Shown piece after piece: positions 16,661 through 41,810 of a stretch of 64,000 nucleotides of DNA. Origin of the DNA: an uncultured virus (IMG/VR IMGVR_UViG_3300031857_000104) (lineage: Duplodnaviria; Heunggongvirae; Uroviricota; Caudoviricetes); IMG/VR virus record IMGVR_UViG_3300031857_000104. One strand, given 5' to 3'. The position numbers were made by a program, and so were the translations under genes. Numbering within the stretch: the first letter of the stretch is position 1; every line of letters begins with the position of its first letter. Under the pieces are notes generated by a model. That model did no database searches. It saw only the letters and a program-made list of their open reading frames with translations, and had not been told where the DNA came from.

Positions 16661-18172
16661 ATGGAGTTTAAAAAACAAGATTTATTGGTGAAAGAAGACA
16701 AAACAGAAGATGGTATTGTAAAAAAAGTATTAGATAAATTAGGAAAGATTAAAGATAGAGCAACTTCTGAAGTTAAAGAAACAAGTGCGTTAGTTAGAGT
16801 GCTAATACATGCTGTTAAATCTTATGCAAAAAATAGAGAGTTTGATTTAAATGATGAAGATAGAAAATTTATAAAAGGACAATCAACTGATGTTGTTAGA
16901 ACACTAATACTTACAATAGTTGCGATTATACCACTACCAATACCACTTACACCATTTTTAATAATATTTGGAAATAAAATAGGTGTTGATCTTGTACCAA
17001 AAGAACATGAAATACCAGAAAAAGGAAAATCAAAAAAACAAAAATTAAAAGAATCTAAATTAAGTATAATTTTAACTGAAGATCAAATAAAAATACTTGA
17101 TGAGATGTCAAAAAGATATAAAAGTGTTTTACATAAATTATGTATAAATCAAAAAGAAAATAAACCATTTTGTAAATTATATCAGTTAGAAAAACAATTA
17201 GATGATGATTCTAAAGTTGATTTAGAAATAGCCATTGAAACATTAAATAGTTATTTCAAATTTAAAAACGTTGGAATGTTTCCTGTTATTGTTGATTTAG
17301 CATTACAAGATGAGGGCAGGACTGTTGCTTATTTAAAATTAATTTCAGACTTTATTCAAGACGAATCACAAGATAAAACACAAACAAAAAGAGTTTTAAA
17401 TAAACAAAGAAACACAAAAGAAATACCTAAAAATTTTGAAGATTTATTAAAACAAGCGAGGTATTTAGAACATCAAAAATACGAAGAAAGATTTGTTGGT
17501 GATTACTTTGATAAAAAAGGAACTTTTTTAAGACTTAATTATAATTGCGGAGACGACGCAAAAGACACTCTATTTACCATATTAACAAAAGTTAAATCAG
17601 AAGAACATACTCTTGATATTGTTTTTGAAAAAATAAAAAATTGTATTCAAAAATCCTTAACTCAAGGAACTTATTATTTAAAGGCGGACTTAGTTACAAA
17701 ACAAGATTTAAAATGTAGTGGTGATACAATATTTCCTTCAGGGACACATTTTGAAGTTAAAAAAATGGATCCATTTATTGATAGTTATTTATCTGAATTT
17801 TTTTCAATATTTAAACAAACTGAAATTATAACATTTAAACCAGATTATATATCATTATATAATGAGTTGATTGATAGAATTTATAATTGGTTATTATCTA
17901 ATCCTGATGCTGAAGAATATTTAAATAAAGTTAAATCACAAATGGGAGGAATTATTTATGAATACGACACGATAGTTCCAACAGAATATATTGATTTATA
18001 TTGGTCAAATAAAGGACAAAGAGGTTGTGATGAAAAAAGACTTTCAATAAGGTTTAGAATTAACCCTGAAGTTAATGAAATTAAAACCTATAAATTTAAA
18101 AATAATGAGGAACTTTTACCTATAATAAAAAAAGTCACTCACAATGAAAAAGATAAAGTTGTTTGTAAATGA
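16661..18172 (+). CDS. fused hypothetical protein with internal leader
   Basis: Probable start ATG 16661 after TATTTAT; hydrophobic IIPLPIPLTP segment; internal LKESKLSIILTEDQIKILDE. Confidence 0.75.
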   Translation: MEFKKQDLLVKEDKTEDGIVKKVLDKLGKIKDRATSEVKETSALVRVLIHAVKSYAKNREFDLNDEDRKFIKGQSTDVVRTLILTIVAIIPLPIPLTPFLIIFGNKIGVDLVPKEHEIPEKGKSKKQKLKESKLSIILTEDQIKILDEMSKRYKSVLHKLCINQKENKPFCKLYQLEKQLDDDSKVDLEIAIETLNSYFKFKNVGMFPVIVDLALQDEGRTVAYLKLISDFIQDESQDKTQTKRVLNKQRNTKEIPKNFEDLLKQARYLEHQKYEERFVGDYFDKKGTFLRLNYNCGDDAKDTLFTILTKVKSEEHTLDIVFEKIKNCIQKSLTQGTYYLKADLVTKQDLKCSGDTIFPSGTHFEVKKMDPFIDSYLSEFFSIFKQTEIITFKPDYISLYNELIDRIYNWLLSNPDAEEYLNKVKSQMGGIIYEYDTIVPTEYIDLYWSNKGQRGCDEKRLSIRFRINPEVNEIKTYKFKNNEELLPIIKKVTHNEKDKVVCK

Positions 18173-19035
18173 AAATAATAATAACAGAAAGTCAATATAA
18201 AATTCTAAAAGAATCTATTTCTGATGATCAGGATTTTATTGAATATATTAAAGACGTTGAAGGAAAAGTAATTGATAAAAAAACTAAACTACATAAAGCA
18301 TATAAAGATTCTGTTGGTGTTGTAACAATTGGATACGGCCATTCTGAAAAACGAGATCCAAATGTTAAGATGGGTATGAAAATACCAGAAACAAAGGCAA
18401 TTAGTTATTTAAAAGATGATTTAAAAACTGATGAGTCAAAAGTTAAAAATTATGTTGCAGAAAAATTTCCAGGTTATACATTAAATGACGAACAAATACA
18501 AATTTTGGTTGATTATAATTACAATGTAGGGTTAAGTAAATTTCCTAAGTTTGTTAAGGCTGTTGTTACTAAAGATTGGGAAACAGCAAAAAAAGAATAT
18601 AAAAGATATGCCGGTGGAAAAGAATTAACTGATCGAAATACAAAATTTTTTAATAAATTTTTAGCAAATAAAGGTAAAAAAACTAATACAACACCAGAAT
18701 TAAAATATGAAACTGATGAACTATGTTTTACTTATTTAGAGTTTGAATTAAACGCTCTTACTCAGAGCACCACACATAAAGTACACCAATTTCCTCCATC
18801 AGATCCTGTAAACTATAGATTAGAAGTAGGACCATATCCACCGCCAAAAAGAGAAGGTAGATATTTAGTTTTTTTTAGAAATGGGAACATTAAATGGTAT
18901 AATGGTAATGAGTTTTCATCTTATGTTGGTAAATGGGGTTATAACACAGAAAACGATGATTGGAAAATAGTTGGTAAAAAAGGTAAAATAAGTTTATCAA
19001 AAGCACTAAATCAACCCTATGATAATTTTGCATAA
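18169..19035 (+). CDS. leader-tagged phage lysozyme (GH24-like)
   Basis: MKIIITESQYKILKE leader; EG...AYKDSVGVVTIGYGH and YNVG motifs. Confidence 0.85.
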   Translation: MKIIITESQYKILKESISDDQDFIEYIKDVEGKVIDKKTKLHKAYKDSVGVVTIGYGHSEKRDPNVKMGMKIPETKAISYLKDDLKTDESKVKNYVAEKFPGYTLNDEQIQILVDYNYNVGLSKFPKFVKAVVTKDWETAKKEYKRYAGGKELTDRNTKFFNKFLANKGKKTNTTPELKYETDELCFTYLEFELNALTQSTTHKVHQFPPSDPVNYRLEVGPYPPPKREGRYLVFFRNGNIKWYNGNEFSSYVGKWGYNTENDDWKIVGKKGKISLSKALNQPYDNFA

Positions 19036-19039
19036 TAAA

Positions 19040-19624
19040 ATGAAAATAATAATAACAGAAGACCAATATAGGTTATTAAAAGAAACTAATATGACCGAAG
19101 ATAATCTATATCGGTTTTTGTACTCATTATGGGATAGACAAAAAAAGATGGGAGAGGAACCCCATCTTGATGATGTAATCTATGATGTTACTGGTATTAC
19201 AAAAGGTAGTGAAGAAGATAACCAAACAATACGACCAATATGGTTTGAATATAATGGTGGTTATAATAATTTATTTGAAAAATTAAAAGAAGAATTATTA
19301 AATAAAGAATTAAGTTTTGAGGGTAATCAAAATTTAAAACTAACATTTATGGTTGATGATATAGAATCATACGATGATGGAAGATGGAAAGGTGAGGTTG
19401 ATATTACTTGTCATTTGTTAGATGGAACTGTTGATGGATATGCTTATGATGAGGAAAGAGACGAGATGGTAATGGTACCAAACATGTATATTGGAGATCA
19501 ATATGCTGAATTGGAGTATGATACACAAGATTTTGATTATTTTTTAAAAGAAGAAATAAGAAATTTTTTGGACACTATAATGGAAAGATATGGAATACTA
19601 TATCATGTTGAAATATATGCGTAA
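19040..19624 (+). CDS. leader-tagged acidic protein
   Basis: MKIIITEDQYRLLKE; start reassigned to ATG 19040. Confidence 0.75.
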   Translation: MKIIITEDQYRLLKETNMTEDNLYRFLYSLWDRQKKMGEEPHLDDVIYDVTGITKGSEEDNQTIRPIWFEYNGGYNNLFEKLKEELLNKELSFEGNQNLKLTFMVDDIESYDDGRWKGEVDITCHLLDGTVDGYAYDEERDEMVMVPNMYIGDQYAELEYDTQDFDYFLKEEIRNFLDTIMERYGILYHVEIYA

Positions 19625-19989
19625 TGAAAATAATAATAACTGAAGATCAATTAAAATTAACGGTATTTCAATATGCTGTTGATAATGCTTGGCAAGATTT
19701 CAAAGACGAATGTCCTGAAAAAAACTTCAGTTGGGATTATTGTGATGATACTGAATTTGTTACAAGAATTGAAGTTAAAACCGCATATAAAACAGAACCA
19801 TACGCCGTTAAAGGGATGGAAGTTGTTGAACTTGGTATTATATTTTATATTGATACAGTTTTTGATTCAATTGATGTTGGTGAATATTTTTGGGAATTAG
19901 AAAAATATCTTGAACCATATTTAGGAAAAGATAATTTCAAAATAAAACTACTTAATGTTATAAACGAAAACCCAAGAGCCAATTGGTAA
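19624..19989 (+). CDS. leader-tagged protein
   Basis: MKIIITEDQ; ends in NW like the next gene. Confidence 0.75.
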   Translation: MKIIITEDQLKLTVFQYAVDNAWQDFKDECPEKNFSWDYCDDTEFVTRIEVKTAYKTEPYAVKGMEVVELGIIFYIDTVFDSIDVGEYFWELEKYLEPYLGKDNFKIKLLNVINENPRANW

Positions 19990-20393
19990 TGAAAATAATA
20001 ATAACAGAAAGTCAGTATAAAATGTTGTTGGAGTCAAATACAGAACCAATGCAAAACCTTATTGATATGGCCTTTGATCAGGTAAAAGAAAATTGTGAAG
20101 GTGGATATTATATTAGATCACATCAAAATCTTATTTGTGAACCTGTAGACATGATTGAAGAAATTAAAGTAGTAGATGTATCAAAAGTAACATCTATGGA
20201 TTATTTTGAAAAAAATAAAATGGATGTCGTACACATAAAAGTTAATTGTTACATTGATTCAATACGTGAATATAATAATTTAGATAATTTTATTTATGAA
20301 CTACAAGAAGAGATGAGAAATATAATTGGTGGTAAATTTTTTACTTTAGAAATAGGTGAGATAATTAATAAAAGAAAAGATTTTAATTGGTAA
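19989..20393 (+). CDS. leader-tagged protein, paralogue of 19624
   Basis: MKIIITESQYKMLLE; similar D.A...K..C...IK/EV...YID...NW pattern. Confidence 0.75.
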   Translation: MKIIITESQYKMLLESNTEPMQNLIDMAFDQVKENCEGGYYIRSHQNLICEPVDMIEEIKVVDVSKVTSMDYFEKNKMDVVHIKVNCYIDSIREYNNLDNFIYELQEEMRNIIGGKFFTLEIGEIINKRKDFNW

Positions 20394-21010
20394 TGAAAAT
20401 AATAATAACAGAAGATCAATTTAATAAGTTACAAGATAGTGACAAGGAATTTAACAAGACAAAAAAACTTGTTAATTCTATGTTTGATCAAGGTTATGAT
20501 GTTGATGATATACTTAAAATTACTGGATTAGATAAAGACGCTGTTATTGTTTTACTTTATGACCGTAAAGTTATACAGGATGAAAGTGGTGAATGTCCAG
20601 ATAAATACCAATACTTATATTACAAACTTTTTAGGAGCGGTAGTGATTTAATAAATAAAGACCGTTATTTTGAAGACGGATCAAGTATTGAAATAACATT
20701 TGAATATTTTTCGGGAACAATTGATTTTAAATATACATCAGAAGGGTATAAATTAATTGGGTACGCAACTTTAATGTGGGACGCTGAACCAAAATTACCT
20801 GTAGATATTACTACTTTTTATGATATTGACGGTACCGATTATGATGTAGATGGTTCCGAATACTCAAGTGTTGATTTAAGAACTGATGAAAAATTTAATA
20901 ATATTAAAACATTTAGACAGTTAGTTGATTATTTTAATAATGATTATTATATTATGTTAAAAGAAGAATTGGATCCTTTATTAAAAAGATGTATAAAAAA
21001 CTATTTATAG
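20393..21010 (+). CDS. leader-tagged acidic protein
   Basis: MKIIITEDQFNKLQ. Confidence 0.75.
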   Translation: MKIIITEDQFNKLQDSDKEFNKTKKLVNSMFDQGYDVDDILKITGLDKDAVIVLLYDRKVIQDESGECPDKYQYLYYKLFRSGSDLINKDRYFEDGSSIEITFEYFSGTIDFKYTSEGYKLIGYATLMWDAEPKLPVDITTFYDIDGTDYDVDGSEYSSVDLRTDEKFNNIKTFRQLVDYFNNDYYIMLKEELDPLLKRCIKNYL

Positions 21011-26177: not shown

Positions 26178-27290
26178 ATGAAAAATAATTTACAAGAACA
26201 AATATCAAGAATAAAATCAATGATGTTTGTAATTAATGAAGAAGAAGAATCAATTATATCTAAATTAAAAAAAATAAAAGAGTTTAAAAATGAAGGGTTT
26301 AAAACTGCATATGTAGAAGACCCTTATGGTAAACCTGATAAAACGGGAGAGCTTTATTATGTTTTTACACAAACAAATAAAGGGTGTGAAGATTTATTAA
26401 GTAAAACTTTTATTAGTTTTTCAGAAAGAAATAAGGCTCATTGGTCAGGTGTAAAAGATATTAGTAAGGCAGATGCAATATTAATACTTACACATAAAAT
26501 AGTAAAAAATAACGTTGTTTTTAAATTAAAATTAAGTTGGGCGTGTGAATTAGTTTATGGTGATGCTGCGGTTGAAAAAATAAAAAATTTAATTGACGAT
26601 TATAATGAAAAAGAAAAAGGAGTTACCGTTGATGATTTTTTAGAACTAAGATCATTTATGTTAAATAAAGAAGAAATAAAAAAACTAAATAATCAATCAG
26701 AAGAGGATGCTAAATTATCTTATACACCACCAAAACCAAGTAGTATAGATGAAAAAGATTTTGTTTTTTCTGCAACGTCTGACGGAAATATAAGTGTAAG
26801 TGTTTTAAAAACTTATCCATCCGATAAAGATCCCAGTAGATTGTTTTATTTTAATGGACCAATGGTTACTTATAACCCTGTTATTTATGGACCACTTGGT
26901 ATAGAAATAGAGTTAAATATTACTGAGTATAATAATGAAACAAATACATTAACAATGGATTTAAGTAAATGTGATTATGCTGCGTGTAAAGATAAAAATG
27001 GGAACCCTAAAGTAATAACGACAACTTTAAATAAAATAAAACCTAAAATTTTAAAATCCGTCACGGATGGATATAAAGTAAATAATTTTAAATTAATAGA
27101 ACTTGAGGTTAATGCTAAAGATGAGAACAATAAAGACACATCTAAAGATGTTGGACTAATCCCTTTAAACACAACAATTGCAAGTAAATGGGCTAATTTT
27201 GTAGGAGATAATACATCACTTATGGCTAAAGATGAAAAAGAAAAACTTAAAGAACAAATATCAAGAATAAAATCAATGATGAGTAATTAA
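26178..27290 (+). CDS. protein with leader at both ends
   Basis: Starts MKNNLQEQISRIKSMM and ends LKEQISRIKSMMSN. Confidence 0.8.
   Translation: MKNNLQEQISRIKSMMFVINEEEESIISKLKKIKEFKNEGFKTAYVEDPYGKPDKTGELYYVFTQTNKGCEDLLSKTFISFSERNKAHWSGVKDISKADAILILTHKIVKNNVVFKLKLSWACELVYGDAAVEKIKNLIDDYNEKEKGVTVDDFLELRSFMLNKEEIKKLNNQSEEDAKLSYTPPKPSSIDEKDFVFSATSDGNISVSVLKTYPSDKDPSRLFYFNGPMVTYNPVIYGPLGIEIELNITEYNNETNTLTMDLSKCDYAACKDKNGNPKVITTTLNKIKPKILKSVTDGYKVNNFKLIELEVNAKDENNKDTSKDVGLIPLNTTIASKWANFVGDNTSLMAKDEKEKLKEQISRIKSMMSN
26194..27281 (+). repeat. 32 bp exact direct repeat (26194-26225 and 27250-27281)
   Basis: AAGAACAAATATCAAGAATAAAATCAATGATG at both positions. Confidence 0.9.
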
Positions 27291-27296
27291 AATTAA

Positions 27297-28013
27297 TTAA
27301 CGAATTTTTTTTATTTTAAAATGTTCATAAAATTCAGGGTAACTTTCTAAATATCCTTTAAGAGTTTCCTCATCAAACTCAATGTCTTCGGCCATCCAAT
27401 ACCAATATAGTTTTTCATTTATATCAAAACCATAATAATCATGACAGTCCATTTGAACCGCACATACTTTTTCGGCATCGTCATGTTGCCCAATACAAAT
27501 AAAACCAGATGAAATATTCTTTAATAAATTACTTTCACCAAGAGGTATATATCTGTTATTTATCCAATTTAACCGCTCAATTATTTTTTGGTAAAACATA
27601 TTGGCACTACCCCACCTTACTGAACTAAAAAAAACAACACAGTCAGATTCAAAAAGTTCTTTAGATATTTTCCACAATTCGTCATCAGGGTTGTGTAAGG
27701 ATGCCCAACATCTATGATAACCTGAAGGGTTTTTACTTTTGTCTTTTAATAATGCTTCCTTTACACCACATTGATTACCGTCTTCTCTGGAAACGTTACC
27801 TTCACATGGATATATGTTTAAATCAGGAACATTTATTACTTTACAATTATCTAATTCGTTAGAAATTACTTTGGCTAAAATAGTGGATTTAGGGGTTTGT
27901 TTTTCAAGTATCTTTTGGTATCTATTAGAACAAGTTAAAAATAAAACCTTTTTATATTTCTTTAAAGTTTTAATAGTTTCAAGTAACTTTTTATGGTTTC
28001 CTTCTTTTATCAT
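27297..28013 (-). CDS. flavodoxin-fold NAD(P)H-dependent FMN reductase / iron-sulfur flavoprotein-like
   Basis: VLFLTCSNR, KSTILA, IYPCEGN, DCVVFFSSVRWG, IIERL. Confidence 0.75.
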   Translation of the reverse strand: MIKEGNHKKLLETIKTLKKYKKVLFLTCSNRYQKILEKQTPKSTILAKVISNELDNCKVINVPDLNIYPCEGNVSREDGNQCGVKEALLKDKSKNPSGYHRCWASLHNPDDELWKISKELFESDCVVFFSSVRWGSANMFYQKIIERLNWINNRYIPLGESNLLKNISSGFICIGQHDDAEKVCAVQMDCHDYYGFDINEKLYWYWMAEDIEFDEETLKGYLESYPEFYEHFKIKKIR

Positions 28014-28097
28014 ATTAATAAATATATATATTTAAAATAAAATATCCAATTAAAAATAAGATTTGTTAAAATGATATATTTTTTTTATATTTACTAA

Positions 28098-28459: not shown

Positions 28460-29176
28460 ATGAACTTAAATGAAGAGGTACAAAGAATCAAATCAATCAT
28501 GGGAGTTATATCTGAAAAGTTAGAAGATATACAAGGAACGCCATTATACCATAAAACCTCAACAAGTAGGGGATTAAAGATTATGGACTCGGATTCATTA
28601 ATAACGTCAAGACCATCTGATGAATATTTAAAATTAGATGATGAACTACGAAACACAGAAAAACAAAGTGCAATATCATTTACAAGAGATAAGAATTGGG
28701 AACCAGATCAGTCAATTGGTGTGGGAAGTGGAAGTAGGTTAGAAGATAAACATATAACTTTTGTGGTTGATAGAAATAAATTAAAAACAAAATACAAAAT
28801 AGAACCTTTTAACTATGAAATAATTGGCGATAGAGATTACAGAAACAAAGGTGTCGAATTACCAAAATGGATGAAAAGACGTAAGAAAAATCCTGAAATG
28901 GAGGAAAGAGTTTTTACTGATAGGATATACCCATTACACAAATATCTTATTGATGTTATATACACTGGTGATAATCCTGAAATTCAGGAGTACTTAGATG
29001 GTTATAAAAGTCAATACCTTAACAAATCTGATGTAACAAATGATTTTGAACAATTAGATAAAGAAGAAATGAAAGAAGGTGAGTTAACAGAAAAGTGTTG
29101 GAAAGGATATACTCAAAAAGGAATGAAGACAATGTTTGGTAAACGATACCCTAATTGTGTAAAGAAGAAAAAATAA
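28460..29176 (+). CDS. leader-tagged protein, possible ADP-ribosyltransferase-like fold
   Basis: MNLNEEVQRIKSIMGVISE leader; LYHKTS, ISFTRD, EMEE; C-terminal LTEKCWKGY...PNCV module. Confidence 0.55.
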   Translation: MNLNEEVQRIKSIMGVISEKLEDIQGTPLYHKTSTSRGLKIMDSDSLITSRPSDEYLKLDDELRNTEKQSAISFTRDKNWEPDQSIGVGSGSRLEDKHITFVVDRNKLKTKYKIEPFNYEIIGDRDYRNKGVELPKWMKRRKKNPEMEERVFTDRIYPLHKYLIDVIYTGDNPEIQEYLDGYKSQYLNKSDVTNDFEQLDKEEMKEGELTEKCWKGYTQKGMKTMFGKRYPNCVKKKK

Positions 29177-29514
29177 TGAACATACAAGAACATATAAGAA
29201 AAATATTGAAAGAAGAAAACTCCGATAAGATGATAAAACTTGTTGGGCAATATTTAAAATTCATGTACCCTGGGTTTAATGAAAAAGATGTGGATGTTGA
29301 CGAATACGAGGATAGTCGTGGTTTTCCTGTTGTTATATTTACTGATATTGAAAATGGTATATATTTAGCAAAATATCATTACGGCACAAAAGAATTACAA
29401 TTAAGTAGGTCTATATTTAATGAGTTAGAAGGGTTATTAAATGATGATATGGAATATGTAATTGATTGGTTTAATAATGAGTTTGGTGAAGATGCCGAAT
29501 ACGTAACGTTTTAA
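29176..29514 (+). CDS. leader-tagged protein
   Basis: MNIQEHIRKILKEE. Confidence 0.75.
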   Translation: MNIQEHIRKILKEENSDKMIKLVGQYLKFMYPGFNEKDVDVDEYEDSRGFPVVIFTDIENGIYLAKYHYGTKELQLSRSIFNELEGLLNDDMEYVIDWFNNEFGEDAEYVTF

Positions 29515-30114: not shown

Positions 30115-30666
30115 ATGAACCTACAAGAACAAATATCAAGAATACAATCAATGATGGGTATCATCACTGAAGATAGATACAAAGGATATACGAGATTTTT
30201 AAAAGATAATGTTTTTACCAATTTCCCAAACTATATCATTAACGATATGTTTAGAGAAACTGGTGATTTAGATTATCGTGACGTTCAAGGGATGTCAAAA
30301 GATGAGATTATAGATTATTTTAATAATGGACCCGGTAAAAGATTTTTTGAAAGATATGGGAATTTTGAAACAAGAAATAAACCAAAAGTTATAGAAATAA
30401 AATGGGACGATTTAATTGAACCAATACAAAAGTTTTTAAAAAATAAAATGTCAGGTGAGAATCCAAATTTTCCAAATTCAAGGGAAAAAGTAATACAAAC
30501 AATGGATAGAGAACCAAATCTTGGTAATGGGGATAATGAACCAATTATTATTAAGTATAATAGTGAAGGGAAAATAGAAGATATTGCCGGTGGTAATCAC
30601 AGAACATACGCAGCATTTGAACTTAACAATTTCAACCCAATAAAAATGAAAGCATATGTGATATAA
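30115..30666 (+). CDS. leader-tagged ParB/Srx-like protein
   Basis: MNLQEQISRIQSMMGIITE; EPIII...GGNHRTYAA. Confidence 0.6.
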   Translation: MNLQEQISRIQSMMGIITEDRYKGYTRFLKDNVFTNFPNYIINDMFRETGDLDYRDVQGMSKDEIIDYFNNGPGKRFFERYGNFETRNKPKVIEIKWDDLIEPIQKFLKNKMSGENPNFPNSREKVIQTMDREPNLGNGDNEPIIIKYNSEGKIEDIAGGNHRTYAAFELNNFNPIKMKAYVI

Positions 30667-33453: not shown

Positions 33454-33716
33454 ATTTAATTTACTCACTCATCTCTACCGTTCATTTCATTCACTACGTT
33501 CTTCGTTCATAATTTAATTCTATACTCTTACATTTCTATAAAGGTTATGTGGTAATTAGTGGGACCTATCTTAAATCATAATGTAATATACTATTAACAA
33601 AATACAGTATAATTGTAAAAACTATTTCCCCCCATTCTAAAGAACTGTCCCCCATTTACTTAATGGATAATAAGAGTAAGATGTATTAGGTATGTTCTAA
33701 TAATATACAGATGAGG

Positions 33717-33769
33717 TGTTCATTAAAAAGGAATGTTCAGTGTCACTGAACAAGGGGAAATAATGAACA
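33717..33769. repeat. nested inverted repeat
   Basis: TGTTCATTA-N8-TGTTCAGTG-T-CACTGAACA-N8-TAATGAACA. Confidence 0.85.
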
Positions 33770-34670
33770 AGATATTGGTATATACAAACGAACAATACGA
33801 AGTGGTATTATATATGGACTGATGTTTTGTAGTAGATAAGTAAGGATAAACCTGACTGTAGTGATACGTTTAGTAAGTCCCACTTATTACCACTAAATAA
33901 TATCTTATTATAATGATCCTATTCTCGTTGGGGGTTAATATATGACACATTTACATGTTCCATTCGTTGGAATATCTTTAGGACTTCGTCTCCCCCGCTT
34001 CTACATAGTTAAGACATTAATTAGCTGGAAAATGTATATACCTAAAAAAATGGTCCTACAGATACCTACAGAGGGGATTTTTTAGGCTGGTCATATCTAG
34101 AACGACAATTATGGTGGGAAATAGTGGAAATTATATGTGGTAAAAAGTGGGGAAAGGGATTGTCCCCCGTGTGAAACGAGACTGACATTTTGTCAAAATC
34201 AAGAAAATTAACAAAAAAGTTATTAACAATTTCCCCCTGACAGTATGACAGAGACCATTTTGTCAGTCTTCAAGGTCTCTAATAATGTACTTTCTAATGT
34301 AGTATGTGATGTAAGAGGTGGGAAAGAAGTCTAAAAAGAATAGACATAGAGATATGAACCCCAATATAAATGATAGTATAATAATAACCCACATAAAGAT
34401 ATATGTTCCCATAAGAGAATAATATTATATAGACTTCAACTTTTCAAGAGTATGTGTATATTTATAGTAGAACTTATTTCCCCCACAGTAGGGGATTAGT
34501 TAATCAGGATCCATGTGACCGTAAAGATTAAGATGAGTTCACAATCACTTTACACTAACTTCCTACTTATGGTGGGGAGATTCTTTATTTATATAAAGCA
34601 GGTTGGAGTCTACCCTCTGCAAGAAGTTGTCCCCCTCTTGAACCCGTCGTCGGAATTACCATAGACAATA

Positions 34671-34700
34671 CAAAGGTACGGATTATTTTTGACATACACA
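34671..34700 (-). promoter_or_regulatory. Bacteroidota-type promoter pointing into the non-coding region
   Basis: Minus strand TTTG...TACCTTTG with about 18 nt spacer. Confidence 0.5.
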
Positions 34701-34954
34701 AATAATCCCCCATATATTTATAAACATTTTTTAGGGAGGGGTGTGGATAACTATATGTCCCCCCTCTATGGTTTGGCATACCCCCTCCCCCCTAAATAGT
34801 GGGGACTCCCTCCCCCGTATCCTCCCTCTTATAGGACATATTGTCAGGCCCAAAAGGGGGGTCAATCCCCTTTATCAAGTATAAACTTTTTAAAACAAAA
34901 AAAGGGGGTATATACCTAAAAAAAATTTCTGGAAAATTTTTCAGAAAATCGGGG

Positions 34955-34961
34955 TATTTAT
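34955..34961 (+). promoter_or_regulatory. TATTTAT motif (representative of about 35 copies before unit-initial genes)
   Basis: Recurs about 4-35 nt before ATG on both strands, e.g. before 10740, 16661, 23593, 26178, 28460, 35394, 37825, 43530, 50536, 54737(-), 61122. Confidence 0.65.
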
Positions 34962-34967
34962 ATTATT

Positions 34968-35324
34968 ATGAAAAGAATTATAAGATTAACAGAATCAGAT
35001 TTAACACGCATCGTTAAACGTGTACTATCTGAACAACCAAAAATCCCTACAGGATTTACACATAAATTAGTTTCCGTTACAAAAAAAGGTAATACTGTTA
35101 TTGGTGTAACATCCCCAACGGTTAGTGAAAGTTCAAACATTCCAACAAGATGGGAAAGTTGTAAAAAAGAAGGTACTAGTAATTGTATTGAATATCCGTC
35201 AACACTACCTGATGGTAGGCATTCGGCAACTGAAGGAACATGTAGTAATTGTGATTTTTTTATTAACTATATGGGTTCAAAATATTTATGTCGTTTTAAT
35301 GATAAACCTTGTAGAAAAGTATAA
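34968..35324 (+). CDS. leader-tagged Cys-rich protein
   Basis: MKRIIRLTESDLTRIVKRVLSE. Confidence 0.75.
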   Translation: MKRIIRLTESDLTRIVKRVLSEQPKIPTGFTHKLVSVTKKGNTVIGVTSPTVSESSNIPTRWESCKKEGTSNCIEYPSTLPDGRHSATEGTCSNCDFFINYMGSKYLCRFNDKPCRKV

Positions 35325-35343
35325 ATGATAATTAATTTATATT

Positions 35344-35372
35344 AACCCCCTCCCCCAACAGAGGGGTTTTTT
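35344..35372 (+). terminator. intrinsic terminator (repeated cassette junction)
   Basis: CCCCTC...AACAGAGGGGTTTTTT; near-identical copy at 35810. Confidence 0.75.
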
Positions 35373-35393
35373 ATTTCCCAAATATTTATTATT

Positions 35394-35804
35394 ATGAAAA
35401 GAATTATAACATTAACGGAATCGGATTTAACAAGGATTGTTAAACGTGTTATTATGGAACAAAATAATAAAAATTTTCCTGAGTCCAAGTTTAATGATAC
35501 ACTAACCAAACTTCTAAAAAGTCAGGGGATTAAGGTGTCGTACCAATACTTTAATCATAATATGTATAAATTAAGGGGTACGGTTTATCTCTATAAGAAT
35601 GGGGAGGTTCTTGGTTATAGACATGGGTATGATTTTTCATATGACTTTGACCAAAGGTTTGGTCGTCTAACTTATTTATCACATTTCCCCAACATAGAGA
35701 ATGTTGACATGTTAAGATTTCTCCCACCTGAAAATGTGGTTGAGTATTTTTCTGATAATTTGGTATCACATATTAAAAAAGATAATCCATATTTGTTTAA
35801 ATAA
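35394..35804 (+). CDS. leader-tagged protein
   Basis: MKRIITLTESDLTRIVKRVIME. Confidence 0.75.
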   Translation: MKRIITLTESDLTRIVKRVIMEQNNKNFPESKFNDTLTKLLKSQGIKVSYQYFNHNMYKLRGTVYLYKNGEVLGYRHGYDFSYDFDQRFGRLTYLSHFPNIENVDMLRFLPPENVVEYFSDNLVSHIKKDNPYLFK

Positions 35805-35809
35805 GACAG

Positions 35810-35837
35810 CCCCCTCATTCAAACAGAGGGGTTTTTT
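35810..35837 (+). terminator. intrinsic terminator (repeated cassette junction)
   Basis: CCCCTC...AACAGAGGGGTTTTTT. Confidence 0.75.
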
Positions 35838-35857
35838 ATTTCCCCATATTTATTATT

Positions 35858-36160
35858 ATGGAAAACCAAATTGAATCTGTAATCAAATCAATTGTATTTA
35901 AAAAATACCCATCATTATATGAGGTTAAAATTAAAGATTTGATGAGGTATTATGAACCTTTAAGTAATAAGTCATTTGTTTGTAATTTCAAATCTAACGA
36001 ATGTTTATCTACAAAAGAACAAATGGATATAGATACTGAAGTTAAATTTTTATTTAATATGTTGGGACCTCAAACTACATTTCGTACACCAGACATCAAA
36101 TGTTTTTTTGATTGTGGAGAAGGATACGAATTTAAAAGTGATTATGGATATAAACATTAA
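35858..36160 (+). CDS. hypothetical protein
   Basis: 100 aa; TATTTAT upstream. Confidence 0.7.
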   Translation: MENQIESVIKSIVFKKYPSLYEVKIKDLMRYYEPLSNKSFVCNFKSNECLSTKEQMDIDTEVKFLFNMLGPQTTFRTPDIKCFFDCGEGYEFKSDYGYKH

Positions 36161-36225
36161 TCCCAACTAAAATCTTTTTATATCTATTACACCCCCAAAT
36201 CTAAAAAAATATTTCTGGAAAAAAT

Positions 36226-36256
36226 TTTGTAAATCCCAACTATTGCATTATCTTTG
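36226..36256 (+). promoter_or_regulatory. Bacteroidota-type promoter (-33/-7)
   Basis: TTTG-N19-TATCTTTG upstream of ATG 36280. Confidence 0.65.
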
Positions 36257-36279
36257 TATTTAATTAAACCCCTTATTAT

Positions 36280-36576
36280 ATGAAATGTAAAATATTATTT
36301 GAATCAAAACACGTTAACGGTAGTGATTACTTTGGAACAAAGATTATATCTATGTTCGATAAAAAATTTAAGATTGTGTATGAATGTAGAAATGGTAGGT
36401 CATCACTTGATGTTGATATTATGAATTCTGATGGTGAGTTCAAACATATCCTTTCTAAATATACCCTTGGCTTTTTTCATGGTCCATCATATGTTAGCAA
36501 TCAGGACAATAAAGACAAGGACTTCTATAAGGGTTTTGAGTTATGTAAGGAAGTCATCTCTAAAATATATTCTTAG
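36280..36576 (+). CDS. hypothetical protein (no leader)
   Basis: 98 aa ORF after host-type promoter. Confidence 0.7.
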   Translation: MKCKILFESKHVNGSDYFGTKIISMFDKKFKIVYECRNGRSSLDVDIMNSDGEFKHILSKYTLGFFHGPSYVSNQDNKDKDFYKGFELCKEVISKIYS

Positions 36577-36580
36577 TCAT

Positions 36581-36838
36581 ATGGAAGATAAAATGTTTGT
36601 TGGGGTTTCCGTAACAATTAAAGACGGTAGATTCTTTTTTGATATAATGGCAGATAAAGGTTTGTCCTTGGAAGATATTCGTTCCATTCTTGTTGGGGGA
36701 GTTGCATTATCCATTCGTTCAGAAAAAACCCCCGAACTTCAGGCAAAGGTAATGAGAAGTGTTGTCGATCATTTGGAATCTGAATTTATTGACCCTGATT
36801 CATTTAAGGATTCGTATGTGAATGATGATATAAAATAA
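36581..36838 (+). CDS. hypothetical protein
   Basis: Probable start MEDKMF at 36581. Confidence 0.65.
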   Translation: MEDKMFVGVSVTIKDGRFFFDIMADKGLSLEDIRSILVGGVALSIRSEKTPELQAKVMRSVVDHLESEFIDPDSFKDSYVNDDIK

Positions 36839-36918
36839 AAAAATTTTTTTCATAACGAACCATCCCCCAGCCCCCTTCCTTTTTCTTTGTATTATATATT
36901 TATTATTAAATTGATATT

Positions 36919-37746
36919 ATGAAAAATTTAATTATTACAGAATCAGAAAGAAATAGGATATTAGGTATGCACAAATCAGCAACATCAAAACATTATTTAA
37001 TGGAACAAGCAAATGGCGATACACCAAGCGGAAATTATTGGCAGGGAATAGTCGACGACCAAAATAAACAAATAGACCAATCTAATATTAAAAATAGATT
37101 TGGTGAGGATATATTTAATGGTGTTAAAAAAATTGCCGATGACAAAGGAATGACTCAGGTGAATAATATACGTGATGACAATTCATATTACGAATGGAGT
37201 AAAGATTTGGGTGGAGATAATAAATTATTACTATTCTTATATAATCAATCTAATGATAACACCAAAACCGCAGCAATTATGACTTATGTTGATATGGACG
37301 GCGGAAATGCTTACAAAATGAGTGGAGGCCGTTTAAGTAAAGGTTCGGGTTTTAAAATGGGGTCATATCCAAGACCTGATAATATTTACAATATTAGTAC
37401 AAGTTTATTTAATAGTGTGGAATTAACATCAGAAATGGATCAAATATCTAAAATGTTTCAGTCAAATAAACCCGCTCAGCAACAGACACAACAAACAAAT
37501 ACCAATACTTCAAGTGGTTCAGATGTTATAAGTAAATTAACAGCCAATAAACCAACTTTCAAATATTATGCTCTAAATAAAAGTGAAAGTACCTTAGTAG
37601 GTAATGGAGTCGATACAAAAGTCACAATTAAAAGTTGGGATTTTAAAGATGGTGATATACCTCAAATGGTTTATGTATCAGATATTAAAGGGAATGATGT
37701 TACTTTGGAAAACACTACCGGAAGTGCTAATGTAACTTTACAATAA
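36919..37746 (+). CDS. leader-tagged protein
   Basis: MKNLIITESERNRILGMHKSATSKHYLME. Confidence 0.75.
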   Translation: MKNLIITESERNRILGMHKSATSKHYLMEQANGDTPSGNYWQGIVDDQNKQIDQSNIKNRFGEDIFNGVKKIADDKGMTQVNNIRDDNSYYEWSKDLGGDNKLLLFLYNQSNDNTKTAAIMTYVDMDGGNAYKMSGGRLSKGSGFKMGSYPRPDNIYNISTSLFNSVELTSEMDQISKMFQSNKPAQQQTQQTNTNTSSGSDVISKLTANKPTFKYYALNKSESTLVGNGVDTKVTIKSWDFKDGDIPQMVYVSDIKGNDVTLENTTGSANVTLQ

Positions 37747-37771
37747 TTTTAAATCTAAATACTTTATATCA

Positions 37772-37801
37772 CCCCCCTCCATCAAACGGAGGGAGTTTTT
37801 T
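37772..37801 (+). terminator. intrinsic terminator
   Basis: CCCTCC...GGAGGG plus T-run. Confidence 0.7.
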
Positions 37802-37824
37802 ATTATATTGTTATATTTATTAAT

Positions 37825-38124
37825 ATGAAAAGAATTGTAAGGTTAACCGAATCAGATTTAACAAGAATTGTTAAACAAGTAATTAATGAGAATACTGAGG
37901 ATTTTAAAAAAGAATGTGAAAACATAAAAGAATTGACAGGAAGTGTTTGGATGTTTATGAACCAATGTGTTGATTCTGATACTCCAGAAGATTTATATAA
38001 AAAAAACGTTTTGGAAAATTCTAAAAAACTAATTACCGCTTTGCAAAAATTAAATTCAACTATTCCAACAACACAACAACCAATAAGTGATATACCTAAC
38101 AAACCCGATTCGTCCACAACTTAA
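37825..38124 (+). CDS. leader-tagged protein
   Basis: MKRIVRLTESDLTRIVKQVINE. Confidence 0.75.
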   Translation: MKRIVRLTESDLTRIVKQVINENTEDFKKECENIKELTGSVWMFMNQCVDSDTPEDLYKKNVLENSKKLITALQKLNSTIPTTQQPISDIPNKPDSSTT

Positions 38125-38148
38125 TTTTTTCCTTCATATTTATTTTAT

Positions 38149-38550
38149 ATGAAAATCATTATAACAGAATCACAATATAGAACTTTATTGGAATCCACCG
38201 ATAATGAATCAATGGATAAAAATAAGAAATTAATTAATAGTATTGTTGGTTTTGATTTCTCTGGTCGTATTGAACAAATAACCTCAACTCATGATATTGC
38301 AAATTGGATTGATGAGTGTGTTGGTTGGGAAAGTATCAGGAGACGGCTTAATAATTTTGGTCCTATGTATACATTTGAACTTGATGGTGTAAAATACCTT
38401 TATCAAGATAGAGGTAAGTTTGAATTGTTTATGGATGATGATTGTAATGACTATTTTAATGATGAAATCCATGAGAGACTTGGAATTGATTTACTTGGGT
38501 TAAAGTTTTCTGATATCATTAACATGTATTTTGAAGAGGAAGAAAATTAA
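38149..38550 (+). CDS. leader-tagged protein
   Basis: MKIIITESQYRTLLE. Confidence 0.75.
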   Translation: MKIIITESQYRTLLESTDNESMDKNKKLINSIVGFDFSGRIEQITSTHDIANWIDECVGWESIRRRLNNFGPMYTFELDGVKYLYQDRGKFELFMDDDCNDYFNDEIHERLGIDLLGLKFSDIINMYFEEEEN

Positions 38551-38633
38551 TAAAAATTTTTTTAGCATCGAACCTTCCCCCAACCCCCTTCCTTTTTTCT
38601 TTATATTGATATATTTATAAATAAAATATTATT

Positions 38634-39173
38634 ATGAATAATTTAAATGAATACAAAAACAGATTTTACACATTAATGGAATCAACCATGGGTAATGTTA
38701 AACCGTTAATAACCGAAGAAGACGAAAATAACACTATTGATTTAACTGATTTAAATTCACAAGTTCCCGATAATTTGGTTGATAATGCCGATTTAACTCC
38801 TGATGGTACTTATACACCTGTTGGTGGTCGCGGTAACCCTCAAGATACGAACGAGTTTACATTATGTTATGAAGGTAATTGTTATAGAGTACCAGGAAAA
38901 AACGTTAATTTTAACTGGGTTCCAAATGGGATGAGAAAGCCTATTAATGGTAAGATTACCGGAACAAGAAATACTTTTTTTTATGAACCATATGTGGCCA
39001 ATGGCAAATCATATGATATTAAGTATTATTTTGGTGGTCAATTGGCAACTAATGTTATAAATAAATCTGATGATAAGTTGATTGGTTTTGATACCGATAA
39101 TTTTAGTTTTTATTGTTATACACCAAAAAGTGGTGGGGATTATGTTTGTGAAGAATTTACATATGAATTTTAA
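38634..39173 (+). CDS. leader-tagged protein
   Basis: MNNLNEYKNRFYTLMESTMGNVKPLITE. Confidence 0.75.
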   Translation: MNNLNEYKNRFYTLMESTMGNVKPLITEEDENNTIDLTDLNSQVPDNLVDNADLTPDGTYTPVGGRGNPQDTNEFTLCYEGNCYRVPGKNVNFNWVPNGMRKPINGKITGTRNTFFYEPYVANGKSYDIKYYFGGQLATNVINKSDDKLIGFDTDNFSFYCYTPKSGGDYVCEEFTYEF

Positions 39174-39242
39174 AAAAAAAACTAAAACTTTTTAATATAT
39201 TAAAGTATTTATACGTAAATAAAATAATTAAACAATATTAAT

Positions 39243-39473
39243 ATGAAAAGAACATTAAAATTAAATGAAAGAGATTTATCAAGAATAATTAAAAGAGTAA
39301 TTAATGAAGGTGCGGGATTTTCAACATATTACACATCATCTGACGGTATTAAAATAGAAGTTTTTTGTACCCAAGGAAATGGTGGGTTAAACTCTAAAAT
39401 AAACAGAGATGGTAAAGGGGCTAATTTAACTCAAGCACAATTTGCACTTTTATGTCCTGGTATGGCATCTTAA
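39243..39473 (+). CDS. leader-tagged small protein
   Basis: MKRTLKLNERDLSRIIKRVINE. Confidence 0.75.
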   Translation: MKRTLKLNERDLSRIIKRVINEGAGFSTYYTSSDGIKIEVFCTQGNGGLNSKINRDGKGANLTQAQFALLCPGMAS

Positions 39474-39504
39474 CAATAACATCTTAAATTTTTAAAAATA
39501 ATTT

Positions 39505-39533
39505 ACCCCCCACCTCATCTAGTGGGGGTTTTT
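39505..39533 (+). terminator. intrinsic terminator
   Basis: CCCCCAC...GTGGGGG plus T-run. Confidence 0.75.
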
Positions 39534-39557
39534 ATTTTCCTTATATTTATATTTTAT

Positions 39558-39869
39558 ATGAAAATCATTATAACAGAAGAACAACTTTTCACGGTTAAAT
39601 CCTTAAATGGGGTTAAAAAATATATTGAGGATTATCTATCACAATTTGAACACTTTGTAAAACTTGAGGTAAGGGTCTCTAAAACTTCCACTGCATATTT
39701 TAACGCTGTTGAAAACCCAACTTTAGTTTATTTTGAAATTTTTATTGATGGACCAATTAGTCAAACAAACATTGAAAATGAAATACAATTTGCAATGGAT
39801 ATGTATTTTCCTCGTGATGGAGAAGAATTAATTTCTGTAATGTGGGATTTATATTTTGACTATGTATAA
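39558..39869 (+). CDS. leader-tagged protein
   Basis: MKIIITEEQL; start reassigned to ATG 39558. Confidence 0.75.
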   Translation: MKIIITEEQLFTVKSLNGVKKYIEDYLSQFEHFVKLEVRVSKTSTAYFNAVENPTLVYFEIFIDGPISQTNIENEIQFAMDMYFPRDGEELISVMWDLYFDYV

Positions 39870-39909
39870 TTTTTTTTAAATTTAAACATATTTATATTAA
39901 AAATATTTT

Positions 39910-40233
39910 ATGAAAAAAATGGTTAGACTTACGGAATCTCAATTAACAAATGTTATTAGAAAAATAATTTTGGAACAAAATGAAACTTTTAATTATAAAG
40001 GTTTAACGATCACATTAGAAAAAAAAGAAAATAATGAAGTTTTTGTAACCATAACAGGGCCTAATGAAGGTTCACAAAGGGTGATTAATATAATTAATAG
40101 AAAATTAGAAAATAACGGGTATAAAAAGAAAAGTGCCGCAGATTCATTAAATGCCGAAAAAATAAGAACGGCAACATTTACTTTGGTTGTACCAATTGTT
40201 AAAACCGTTAAAGACATATTGGGTCTTAACTAA
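39910..40233 (+). CDS. leader-tagged protein
   Basis: MKKMVRLTESQLTNVIRKIILE. Confidence 0.75.
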   Translation: MKKMVRLTESQLTNVIRKIILEQNETFNYKGLTITLEKKENNEVFVTITGPNEGSQRVINIINRKLENNGYKKKSAADSLNAEKIRTATFTLVVPIVKTVKDILGLN

Positions 40234-40305
40234 CGGTTACCACCAATCTTTTTAATTGTAGAAAATAATATTTGATTTTATTTTTTATTTTGGGTATATT
40301 TTTTC

Positions 40306-40800
40306 ATGTGCATTAATATACCACCAAATTATTTTGAACCACATTATCGTGAGGTGAGATATCCCCATTCAAATTTAAAAAAACATCATTCAAGATATCT
40401 TAGGTTATTGTCTGAATTTTTTAAAACTATGTATGATTTTAAATTTCAATTGTATTGTGAAAGAGATCATATACAAGTAATAATTTTTGACGTATTACCA
40501 TCACCCGTTTACCACCCAAGCACATTTGACCCTTCTTATAGGTTTTTAAAAAATGATAACGTTAGTTATGAACTTATTAGTGAGTATGAAATTTTTAATA
40601 CCGTCTATTCATATATTCCTGATTTAATACCATATTTAGAATTTGAATTTGTTTTTTATCTAGGTGTGGCGTTTTATGAACAAAGAGAAAACCACTGCTT
40701 TAATTTAAGACGATTATATTATGAAGTTTGTTCTAGAGAAGAATTACATAGACAAAAACAATATTATGATAATATTTATAATATAAACACATTTCTATGA
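40306..40800 (+). CDS. hypothetical protein (no leader)
   Basis: 164 aa aromatic-rich ORF. Confidence 0.6.
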   Translation: MCINIPPNYFEPHYREVRYPHSNLKKHHSRYLRLLSEFFKTMYDFKFQLYCERDHIQVIIFDVLPSPVYHPSTFDPSYRFLKNDNVSYELISEYEIFNTVYSYIPDLIPYLEFEFVFYLGVAFYEQRENHCFNLRRLYYEVCSREELHRQKQYYDNIYNINTFL

Positions 40801-41192
40801 AAAAAATAATTAGATTAACAGAAAACGAATTAGCTAGTTTAATAAAACAAGTTATTAATGAACAAAATAATGAAACCACTAAAATTGGTGGTTATGAATT
40901 AGGTGCGGGTGTTGCCAGTATTCAAAAATTAGGAGGTTCAAAAATTAAAATAACGTTTAATGCTCCTACAACAGAACCTGTTATTTGGTTTGGTGGAGGT
41001 GAAAACAATTTTACATATAAAGTAATATTGAAGTACGATCCAAAAACTGAAGAAATCTCATTAGATGATTTTTTAACAGACTACGATCTTAACCCTAATA
41101 AAGAAAGAGAATATTTTGAACAAAATACTGGATTACCCTTACCCGCTAATAGTGAAAACTTTAGTAAAAATATTTTAGAAAAAATATTTTAG
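40797..41192 (+). CDS. leader-tagged protein
   Basis: MKKIIRLTENELASLIKQVINE. Confidence 0.75.
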   Translation: MKKIIRLTENELASLIKQVINEQNNETTKIGGYELGAGVASIQKLGGSKIKITFNAPTTEPVIWFGGGENNFTYKVILKYDPKTEEISLDDFLTDYDLNPNKEREYFEQNTGLPLPANSENFSKNILEKIF

Positions 41193-41202
41193 AAAAAAAT
41201 CA

Positions 41203-41430
41203 ATGAAAAACCAATTAAAAAATATTTTAGAAACTGTTTTAAAAGAAACTTATCCTGAAATAAAAAATATTATTGTATTTAAAAATGAATATGCTGAAAA
41301 CATTTATTCAGTTTTAGTTAATATTGAATATATGGATCTTTTAAAAATTGATGATAAAGAATTAAAAGAAGATATATACACAATTGGGGGGTATATAAAC
41401 TGTAGAATTGAGTCCGTGCAATTTTATTAA
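41203..41430 (+). CDS. hypothetical protein
   Basis: 75 aa; LKETYPEIKNI resembles 35858 and 23593. Confidence 0.65.
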   Translation: MKNQLKNILETVLKETYPEIKNIIVFKNEYAENIYSVLVNIEYMDLLKIDDKELKEDIYTIGGYINCRIESVQFY

Positions 41431-41460
41431 TTAAGATATATTTATATATAAAATAATATT

Positions 41461-41730: not shown

Positions 41731-41751
41731 TTAAATACTTTTCATATTTTG

Positions 41752-41781: not shown

Positions 41782-41810
41782 ATTTTATAATTTTTAATAT
41801 ATTTATCTAT

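Follow-up and report, generated by a model that had tools for sequence, protein, structure and literature searches.

A protein of 370 residues from an uncultured phage begins and ends with the same peptide, EQISRIKSMM, and the second copy is probably a leader stranded at a point where phage genes have been exchanged. The peptide belongs to a family of short N-terminal leaders that stand in front of otherwise unrelated proteins, here termed cargos. The stranded-leader reading is favored because a homologous protein has a leader followed by a second cargo at the same junction, and because the C-terminal copy has a varying tail, misses the [LIVM]xE end, and is not matched by any tail in the homologues of 34% identity.

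Source of the DNA

The window, i.e., the whole stretch of 64,000 nt that was analyzed, has a G+C content of 28.7% and is densely packed with small genes, mainly on the plus strand. Comparison of its ORFs with PHROGs assigned functions such as RNA ligase, DNA methyltransferase, endolysin-type lysozyme, and M23 peptidase domains; the same comparison named no head gene and no protease gene, and it found no integrase or recombinase family, tyrosine recombinases included, among the 109 ORFs of these 64 kb of genome. Nothing similar was found in the GenBank phage records, either by DNA or by the protein encoded by the gene under study (cargo1). The related contigs, which were recovered from lake and freshwater metagenomes, are as long as 281-285 kb, and CheckV rated a 49-kb relative as 17% complete; these sizes, sources, and completeness estimate point to an uncultured freshwater jumbo phage with a genome of roughly 290 kb. 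No paper on this leader family was found in a literature search that covered few subscription journals.

The Repeat and Its Reading Frame

The earlier note on this DNA had described a cargo domain bracketed by an exact 32-bp repeat of leader DNA, with both copies in frame, and exact matching bears this out (Table 1). No match to the 32-mer arose in 100 dinucleotide-preserving shuffles, and the spacing of 1056 nt equals 352 codons, so that both copies are in the frame of the same ORF. A third copy, with a single mismatch (31/32), is located at 30125-30156 on the plus strand. Translation from the ATG at 26178 gives the 370-aa product, with the N-terminus MKNNLQEQISRIKSMM and the C-terminus KLKEQISRIKSMMSN, in which EQISRIKSMM occupies residues 7-16 and 359-368; the ORF listing allows an upstream extension to a TTG at 26157. 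At the position of the ATG of the working leaders the C-terminal copy has GAA, and it is not followed by their G-[LV]-I-x-E end.

Table 1. Features of the repeat-bearing locus and its surroundings (window coordinates)
Feature	Positions	Strand	Basis
ORF: A1-type leader, cargo1 body, probable stranded leader stub, stop	26178..27290	+	
Working N-terminal A1 leader MKNNLQEQISRIKSMMFVINE, end I-N-E	26178..26240	+	
Repeat copy 1, exact 32-mer	26194..26225	+	
Cargo1 body, two predicted alpha/beta domains linked by helices	26241..27239	+	
Probable stranded leader stub EKLKEQISRIKSMMSN and stop, in frame with cargo1	27240..27290	+	Alignment with working leaders and L022
Repeat copy 2, exact 32-mer	27250..27281	+	
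Cargo3 module, present or absent among alleles	27290..28060		Contigs of two runs (X7, X11)
Cargo3 gene, 238 aa, leaderless	27297..28013	-	
Second A1 leader gene, its leader containing the third 32-mer copy	30115..30666	+	

Short-read graph contigs do break at leader copies, and a contig mis-joined at a repeated leader could in principle have created the second copy, an artifact for which the earlier note had allowed. This explanation is effectively ruled out, since the same protein end occurs in four database proteins from other, independent assemblies (P0001, P0004, P0015, and P0016), diverged alleles (P0005 and others) have a nonexact stub at the same place, and one Logan contig from another run (X11 record 5), which belongs to a diverged allele, continues from cargo1 across the C-terminal copy.

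A Leader Family Conserved as DNA

Simple N-terminal patterns recognized 34 leader genes in the 64 kb, namely six of the A1 type (the EQIxRIKSMM kind), seven of the A2 type, eight each of the B and C types, and five of the D type. The D-type genes may instead be a true domain family, and the number of leader genes is therefore best given as at least 29. A degenerate DNA pattern for EQISRIKSMM retrieved 21 IMG/VR loci, in all of which the peptide starts 2-5 residues past the start codon (21/21); at least six unrelated cargos follow it, although several of these loci are duplicates. Between the window and the 21 loci, nucleotide similarity does not extend beyond leader-sized stretches (32-89 nt), with the exception of one stretch of 118 nt (29087-29204).

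The N-terminal position of the leaders is nearly universal. Scanning six frames of 56 sources (392,763 nt) with a regular expression for A1 leaders returned 160 matches, of which 148 obey a strict N-terminal rule and 10 are normal starts lengthened upstream in frame (L026 7947 among them), the remaining two being one chance match and the C-terminal copy of the window. The corresponding expression for A2 leaders returned 46 matches: 42 N-terminal, three at probable non-ATG starts, and one internal, in the locus L022. Thus, apart from the chance match, only the window copy and the internal leader of L022 lie away from a gene start among 206 matches.

Codon usage was compared between 133 unique A1 leader contexts and the background of the same contigs. 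The leader Leu is CTA in 88 of 124 cases against 9% in the background, the first Ile is ATA in 115 of 121 (background 37%), and the first and second Ser are TCA in 97 of 102 and 85 of 94 cases, respectively (background 36% for both). An identical 30-mer is used by 10 of the 21 unique leaders that encode EQISRIKSMM, whereas the probability of identity from background codon use is 0.002. In 136 contexts, conservation extends over a block of about 44 nt, from the ATG to two bases beyond ATGATG, and drops to the background level on either side. The leader is therefore conserved as DNA, synonymous sites included. Either continual exchange or conversion among leaders, or selection on the DNA or mRNA, may account for this conservation. 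Promoter-like sites are not enriched at the leaders (20 against 18.6 expected), and neither are terminator-like sites (1 against 0.6).

These data also change how the exactness of the repeat is to be read. The exact 32-mer occurs at 11 places in eight sources, nine of the places being in seven loci other than the window; it is the commonest DNA form of the family. Because the 32-mer is a family property found in eight sources, identical leader copies are no sign of a recent event, and the proposal that 32 bp of exact identity mark a recent duplication or integration does not hold.

Homologues of Cargo1 and the Second Cargo of L022

The cargo1 family is small. A word-indexed search gave three clusters, and an exhaustive search of 1.84 billion representatives gave four matches, all of the same three lineages. 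Neither cargo1 nor cargo3, the product of the gene downstream, was assigned to a family in Pfam, PHROGs, or NCBIfam or had a match in a sequence search of the PDB, and searches of the ESM Atlas and Rfam found nothing.

The most distant lineage (P0003 and P0024; 321 aa, 34% identity) ends approximately where the cargo1 body ends, without a leader-like tail. The lineage represented by L022 (7998-9500) is 55% identical to the window protein. It is a single ORF of 500 aa in which a leader, cargo1, the internal leader TNLQEQIKRILMEE, and a second body, cargo2, follow one another with no stop between them; the internal leader has a Thr codon at the Met position and no ATG. The L022 protein equals P0002 except for one residue, and its form is shared by four full-length members of the cluster from several contigs. 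In L026, L030, L038, L015, and L057, cargo2 has a leader gene to itself, with an A1 leader in some contigs and an A2 leader in others, and P0020 (138 aa), from the same 90% cluster, consists of cargo2 on its own, with the N-terminus MKLREQIKRILKEE. Since cargo2 is elsewhere a stand-alone leader gene, the L022 protein is the product of two normally separate genes fused across a leader. Furthermore, because a homologue of only 55% identity also has a leader at this junction, the feature is old and not a fresh scar.

The L022 junction bears directly on another explanation, namely a tandem duplication of leader and cargo1 by unequal crossing-over at leaders, followed by deletion of nearly all of the second cargo1. 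It would explain why GTAATTAA follows copy 2, with a 2-nt offset from its place after copy 1, and why the two copies with their upstream flanks align without gaps over 55 nt at 82% identity, but both observations are weak in DNA of 29% G+C. Moreover, a similar G-[LV]-I-N-E stretch is common after working leaders, so that the 8-mer is not specific to cargo1, and L022 has another leader type and another cargo at the homologous junction. A tandem duplication is thus very unlikely.

The C-Terminal Stub in Close Relatives and in the Predicted Structure

In a DNA alignment, the window stub matches up in the same frame as the internal leader of L022 and the working leaders. Its variation was followed in the window group, which comprises 14 sequences at about 90% identity or more (12 C-terminus-bearing members of the 90% cluster and two fragments). 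The motif LKEQI[SL]RIK is kept in 14/14, and a stretch of 23 residues ending in LKEQISRIK is invariant in 13, P0010 being the one that differs, while the residues before it vary. The tail beyond the motif is SMMSN in four relatives, TIIKN in eight, TIIKNKIC in one, and TIMKN in one, and the invariant stretch is common to both frequent allele groups (SMMSN and TIIKN). Met occupies the two variable tail positions in 112 and 125 of 131 working leaders. The stub also misses the [LIVM]xE end, which occurs within ten residues after the leader in 111 of the 131 unique A1 leaders, mostly as G-[LV]-I-[NE]-E, as compared to 18% of random ten-residue windows.

The AlphaFold2 model of the protein, built from a nine-sequence alignment, has a mean pLDDT of 73.5. 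It has an N-terminal helix (residues 2-38, pLDDT about 54-63) that continues past the leader, then the two alpha/beta domains, a low-confidence unstructured segment at 341-350 (pLDDT below 50 from 342), and a C-terminal helix at 351-369 with pLDDT of about 40-48 and no confident contacts. A Foldseek comparison of the model with the PDB gave no credible match (best TM 0.14). In the model, the stub looks like an appendage outside the fold.

The earlier note had also suggested that the C-terminal copy is a functional tag. With the same helix at either end, cargo1 could be held at two points by the partner of the leader, perhaps the head core during assembly, or its two ends could pair. None of the 14 close relatives has lost the frame of the stub, and LKEQISRIK is the same in 13 of them; this agrees with such a role and counts against a stranded leader, and the invariant 23 residues could reflect selection on the C-terminal helix. 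The tag would be a predicted helix on a flexible linker, its core peptide shows moderate amphipathicity (only 3% of shuffled versions have as high a hydrophobic moment), and T4 Alt is a protein processed at both ends (PMC5694885). Against this, the four tails differ exactly where working leaders are nearly invariant, the stub does not run on into G-[LV]-I-x-E, the 34% homologue ends without a comparable tail, the leader scan found only one other off-start leader, that inside L022, and the C-terminal helix of the model makes no confident contact at its low pLDDT. The tail variation, the missing [LIVM]xE end, and the tailless homologue weaken the claim of a second tag, which we regard as unlikely yet still a live rival.

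Leaders as Exchange Points

The proposal that leader DNA is the handle for recombination is supported by comparisons between loci. The sequences of L015 and L011 match at 98.9% over 3031 nt and then part exactly where a leader ends, with different and unrelated DNA and cargos beyond it, and the same cargo is found with different leaders in different contigs. Breakpoints were collected from megablast matches of at least 400 nt and at least 93% identity among the window and L001-L055, with ends at least 150 nt inside both sequences. Twenty of the 39 pairwise events fall within 10 nt of an A-type leader, and leaders cover 3.3% of the interior bases; the binomial probability of this enrichment, about 6e-14, is only indicative, since near-duplicate loci inflate the counts. 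Over all 91 sources, 29 of 102 query-side breakpoints are at leaders, against a coverage of 2.1%.

In-frame fusions across leaders recur as well. Relaxed patterns applied to 581 ORFs of at least 150 aa recovered five with an internal leader (the window ORF, L022, L038 4326, L039 2289 of 776 aa, and L039 13446) and one likely chance match. The N-terminal part of L038 4326 is 100% identical in L047, where other DNA follows the leader, and its C-terminal part is 81% identical in L024. Likewise, P0010 (543 aa) is a HAD-like protein fused via EDDKNLQEQISRIKSMM to leader-cargo1, and L026 7947 has a cargo-less A2 leader followed two codons on by an A1 leader in one ORF.

Exchange at leaders need not involve a circle. 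The earlier note had proposed that a circular leader-cargo unit integrated by a single crossover, or that a duplication was followed by loss of a neighboring cassette. Of these, the loss of a cassette fits the intact second cargo of L022, and circle integration is not needed to explain the structure. In the circular version, recombination between two leaders would release a leader-cargo1 mini-circle, and its crossover into a resident leader would leave one leader copy on each side. Leader-cargo-leader is indeed the predicted product, the same cargo1-to-leader junction stands before different DNA in the window and in L022, and T4-type phages are documented to form such circles between the short conserved elements of cassettes (PMC2839356). 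A double crossover between the linear genomes of co-infecting phages would yield the same structure, however; none of the 15 joints listed, out of 35, is of this kind at the 32-mers, which is no test, as graph contigs break at leader copies and are uninformative on a 26225-to-27282 joint or on circles. In addition, the 32-bp exactness is no evidence of recency, the 109 ORFs include no integrase-like protein, and the earlier note's check for an empty site with a single repeat copy gave no such site for cargo1 in the databases searched (IMG/VR; the records of L057, L056, and L006; relatives of the upstream gene). Cargo1 itself was not found in IMG/VR or in the records of L057, L056, and L006, and the upstream 489-aa gene has relatives at three loci, none of them syntenic. 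An origin by circle integration is therefore quite unlikely.

Two joints were considered as candidates for a deletion or circle, one from 26181-26243 to 29039-29085 and one from 29177 back to 26187 with an ATG between. Both were assigned to the loci of other phages because their sides are short (21-45 nt), their depths exceed the local depth, and such arrangements are known in other loci, e.g., in L006, where a KKKK-ending gene is followed by a leader.

The Cargo3 Module

Downstream of the stub is the convergent cargo3 gene, with 6 nt between the two stops. Contigs of two runs (X7 and X11) join 27289 to 28061 and skip the 771 nt between them (27290-28060), so that cargo3 is an insertion/deletion module. 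In X11 record 5, the end of cargo1 (34 differences in 264 nt) leads straight into the DNA that precedes the gene at 28098. One X7 contig has unlike DNA before 27226. The KIC-stop tail of P0007 matches what window positions 28058-28069 encode, which suggests that the TIIKN-type alleles are those without cargo3.

Relatives of cargo3 were found at 36 loci, 34 of which include the N-terminus; 33 of the 34 are leaderless, in unrelated contexts. Only in L039 does a relative have an A1 leader (53% identity, the alignment beginning at residue 19 of L039). This distribution argues against an in-situ inversion in which cargo3 would be the stub's own cargo.

The closest relative, in L057, is 93% identical in amino acids and 89% in DNA over 27306-28070, nearly the bounds of the module. 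L057 has a leader remnant with an in-leader stop on the opposite strand, 47 nt past the cargo3 stop and with a truncated cargo behind it, and a leader-cargo2 gene on the other side of cargo3. This geometry matches that of the window, and it may have arisen independently. Shared ancestry of stub plus cargo3 with L057 was rejected, since nucleotide homology begins only at 27306 and the cargo3-free allele still has the stub. We infer that the window may be a recombinant, similar to L022 on its left and to L057 on its right.

An Explanation for the Second Copy

The stranded-leader explanation can be put as follows. Copy 1 is the working leader of cargo1. Copy 2 would be the 5' remainder of a leader that once opened, and in relatives still opens, the adjoining leader-cargo gene; with no stop and start codon between the two genes, its codons extend the frame of cargo1. 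The cargo that once stood behind the stub would have been lost or exchanged, and in the window allele the stub now abuts a reverse-strand leaderless module that is itself an insertion/deletion polymorphism. The mechanism would be ordinary homologous recombination of the phage, with the leader DNA of about 44 bp acting as a portable patch of homology: crossovers in leaders would swap, delete, or fuse cargos, and where a leader is in frame with the gene upstream, a crossover within it would automatically yield an in-frame fusion or a stub. Fusion may have come first and loss of the cargo second, or the stub may have come first and cargo2 been added by a crossover within it. The stub itself would be functionless. 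The ATG at 27232-27234, which is out of frame, was considered as the former start of the gene to which the stub belonged, displaced by a 1-nt deletion, and was set aside, as the in-frame alignment with L022 and the working leaders is simpler.

A bolder version, which we hold to be unlikely, makes the stub a live docking site and the 44-bp leader an integrase-free exchange site, a "coding integron" whose in-frame multi-cargo polyproteins would be cut by the head protease at every internal leader. If so, the leader would be kept identical as DNA because of its role in exchange, and the stub could capture the next cargo, as in L022.

Read as a stranded leader, the odd repeat becomes a readable scar of how accessory genes are rebuilt in large uncultured phages. 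With the exchange site inside the genes, swaps, fusions, and stubs would all be in frame. The signature is countable, as breakpoints at leaders together with synonymous sites frozen over about 44 nt, and two kinds of product are predicted, namely deletions or circles formed by way of the 32-mers and polyproteins cut by a protease.

Comparison with Known Systems

The prohead protease of phage T4, gp21, prefers to cleave at (L/I)xE, which resembles the [LIVM]xE end of the leaders. The cargos that bear leaders include Phage_lysozyme, M23 plus VanY, a peptidoglycan-binding domain, PAP2, a Tox-ART-HYD1-like domain, a P-loop kinase, and an HD domain, and among five partial records from relatives with leaders, one (G008) encodes a T4-type prohead protease (PF03420, 62.8 bits). 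By analogy, the leaders are putative capsid-targeting propeptides that would be cut at the [LIVM]xE end. If leaders are cut off, fusions across them would be harmless and hence persist; the stub, without such an end, would stay on cargo1. If they are capsid-loading tags, the arrays would amount to a large reservoir of injected proteins that changes quickly.

Among described protein systems, the capsid-targeting sequence (CTS) of T4 is the closest. There, a short N-terminal peptide is the sole common part of the unrelated, fast-changing proteins IPI-III and Alt (PMC3012670, PMC12373910); it is a propeptide of 10-20 residues by which unrelated internal proteins are loaded and which gp21, the prohead protease, then cleaves away (PMC3012670, PMC5694885, PMC9958956). 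As at the polymorphic ip loci of T-even phages, one short N-terminal peptide is placed on otherwise unrelated proteins. Unlike in T4, there are several leader families, at least 29 genes in 64 kb rather than a handful at two loci, and the leader genes lie among nonstructural genes; the available text of the T4 descriptions contains no C-terminal leader stub. The likeness noted is one of layout, putative cleavage motif, and cargo kinds.

As to mechanism, the closest described case is the modular shuffling mediated by PeSLs (promoter-early stem-loops) in T4-type phages. A PeSL is a short conserved sequence repeated in the plastic regions of RB49 and phi1 (Arbiol et al. 2010, PMC2839356), where it bounds insertions, deletions, and replacements between close relatives; recombination functions of the phage itself, which require patches of less than 50 bp, are held responsible for the exchange, with no dedicated integrase involved (PMC2839356). 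Similarly, the conserved block of about 44 nt described here bounds differences between loci (20 of 39 breakpoints). PeSLs, however, are intergenic promoter-terminator elements, whereas the leader is coding and forms the first 14-15 codons of each gene, without enrichment of promoters or terminators. The exchanges described here therefore keep the reading frame and can make fusion proteins and stubs; mini-circles are documented for the PeSL system. With the leaders, the classic "linker" model of modular evolution in phages, together with the T4 PeSL and ip-locus cases, would be extended beyond intergenic elements to a leader that is itself coding.

Two further systems are similar in part. Like integron gene cassettes, the leader genes are single-gene units exchanged at a repeated boundary sequence, but no integrase is encoded among the 109 ORFs, the boundary is inside the coding sequence, and the exchange is apparently homology-dependent. 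Polymorphic toxin loci (CDI and Rhs) combine a large conserved N-terminal delivery region with a variable C-terminal toxin and an immunity gene, and their displaced "orphan" modules are truncated remnants beside the active gene. In both the toxin loci and the leader arrays, the variable part is exchanged by recombination at a junction of conserved coding sequence, and remnants stay behind, with the difference that the junction here is a leader of 15 residues on whole small phage genes.

Tandem leaders, fusions and a possible shared end module

The second leader copy read in frame at the C-terminus of cargo1, the body of the window's A1-leader ORF at 26178-27290, is taken as a stranded leader (the stub), and its mirror image is found in L026, a locus from a related uncultured phage contig. 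There, a single ORF carries two leaders in tandem, MDLQEHIRRILKEETN and then MKLQEQISRIKSMMGVINEN..., so that a leader devoid of cargo lies ahead of a working leader gene. A further polymorphic fusion at a leader is provided by the database protein P0010 (543 aa), a member at about 90% identity of the cluster of the window's cargo1 protein, in which a HAD-like protein with a DFDDTLV motif is joined in frame via the leader to cargo1.

At the other end of the genes, different leader-cargo proteins finish in one conserved C-terminal peptide (...GYTQKGMKTMFGKRYPNCVKKKK), directly after which the next leader starts. The DNA of this region is 86% identical between the window and L006, another related locus, and the contig depth summed over four metagenomes peaks at the window's copy, reaching 965 vs about 20 nearby. 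This end region looks like a second shared end module, possibly swappable.

Two gene arrays in the window bear two other leader types, and one of the B-type leader genes encodes a phage lysozyme domain. In two proteins whose leader types differ, the 30 residues directly after the leader are matched by Pfam DUF6576 (model length 47 positions), with a score of 28 bits that is barely above the cut-off.

Candidate regulatory sequences

The leader DNA of cargo1 agrees at 10 of 12 positions with a sigma-70-type promoter (TTTACA, 17 nt, TAAAAT), although such matches are no commoner here than in shuffled sequences and the pattern may not be that of the host. Elsewhere in the window, a 1.5 kb stretch has no ORF longer than about 60 aa, and its G+C content rises to 0.44 vs 0.29 overall. 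Blocks of it recur at 70-95% identity in at least 10 related loci, and it contains repeated GTGG motifs and TTGACA-like boxes. Searches of the stretch for tRNA and Rfam matches found neither, and one block gave a weak consensus fold (-7.1 kcal/mol, one compensatory pair). Conserved regulatory DNA is one possible reading of the stretch; an RNA not yet described is another.

Coordinates of leader-associated and neighbouring features
Feature	Sequence	Position	Detail
Arrays with other leader types	window	18169-21010; 34968-44225	MKIIITE[SED]Q...; MK[RK]I[IV]RLTESDL..IVKRVI.E
Lysozyme-domain gene	window	18169-19035	
Promoter-like match	window	26189-26217	
End peptide	window	29087-29204	
End peptide	L006	1768-1885	
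End peptide	L091	9685-10176	
ORF-poor stretch	window	33454-34967	blocks shared with L047, L038, L043, L039, L049, L036, L024, L028, L026, L057
Gene with DUF6576 match	window	50536-51087	
Gene with DUF6576 match	L057	4274-4972	
ORF with tandem leaders	L026	7947-8474	
Prohead protease locus	L094	G008:C1:9649-13113	PF03420

A protease gene on a contig with leader genes

In G008, the partial record of a leader-bearing relative, a 56-kb contig holds several A1-like leader genes (L005) together with a gene for a prohead protease of the T4 type, which is followed by a scaffold-like acidic protein.
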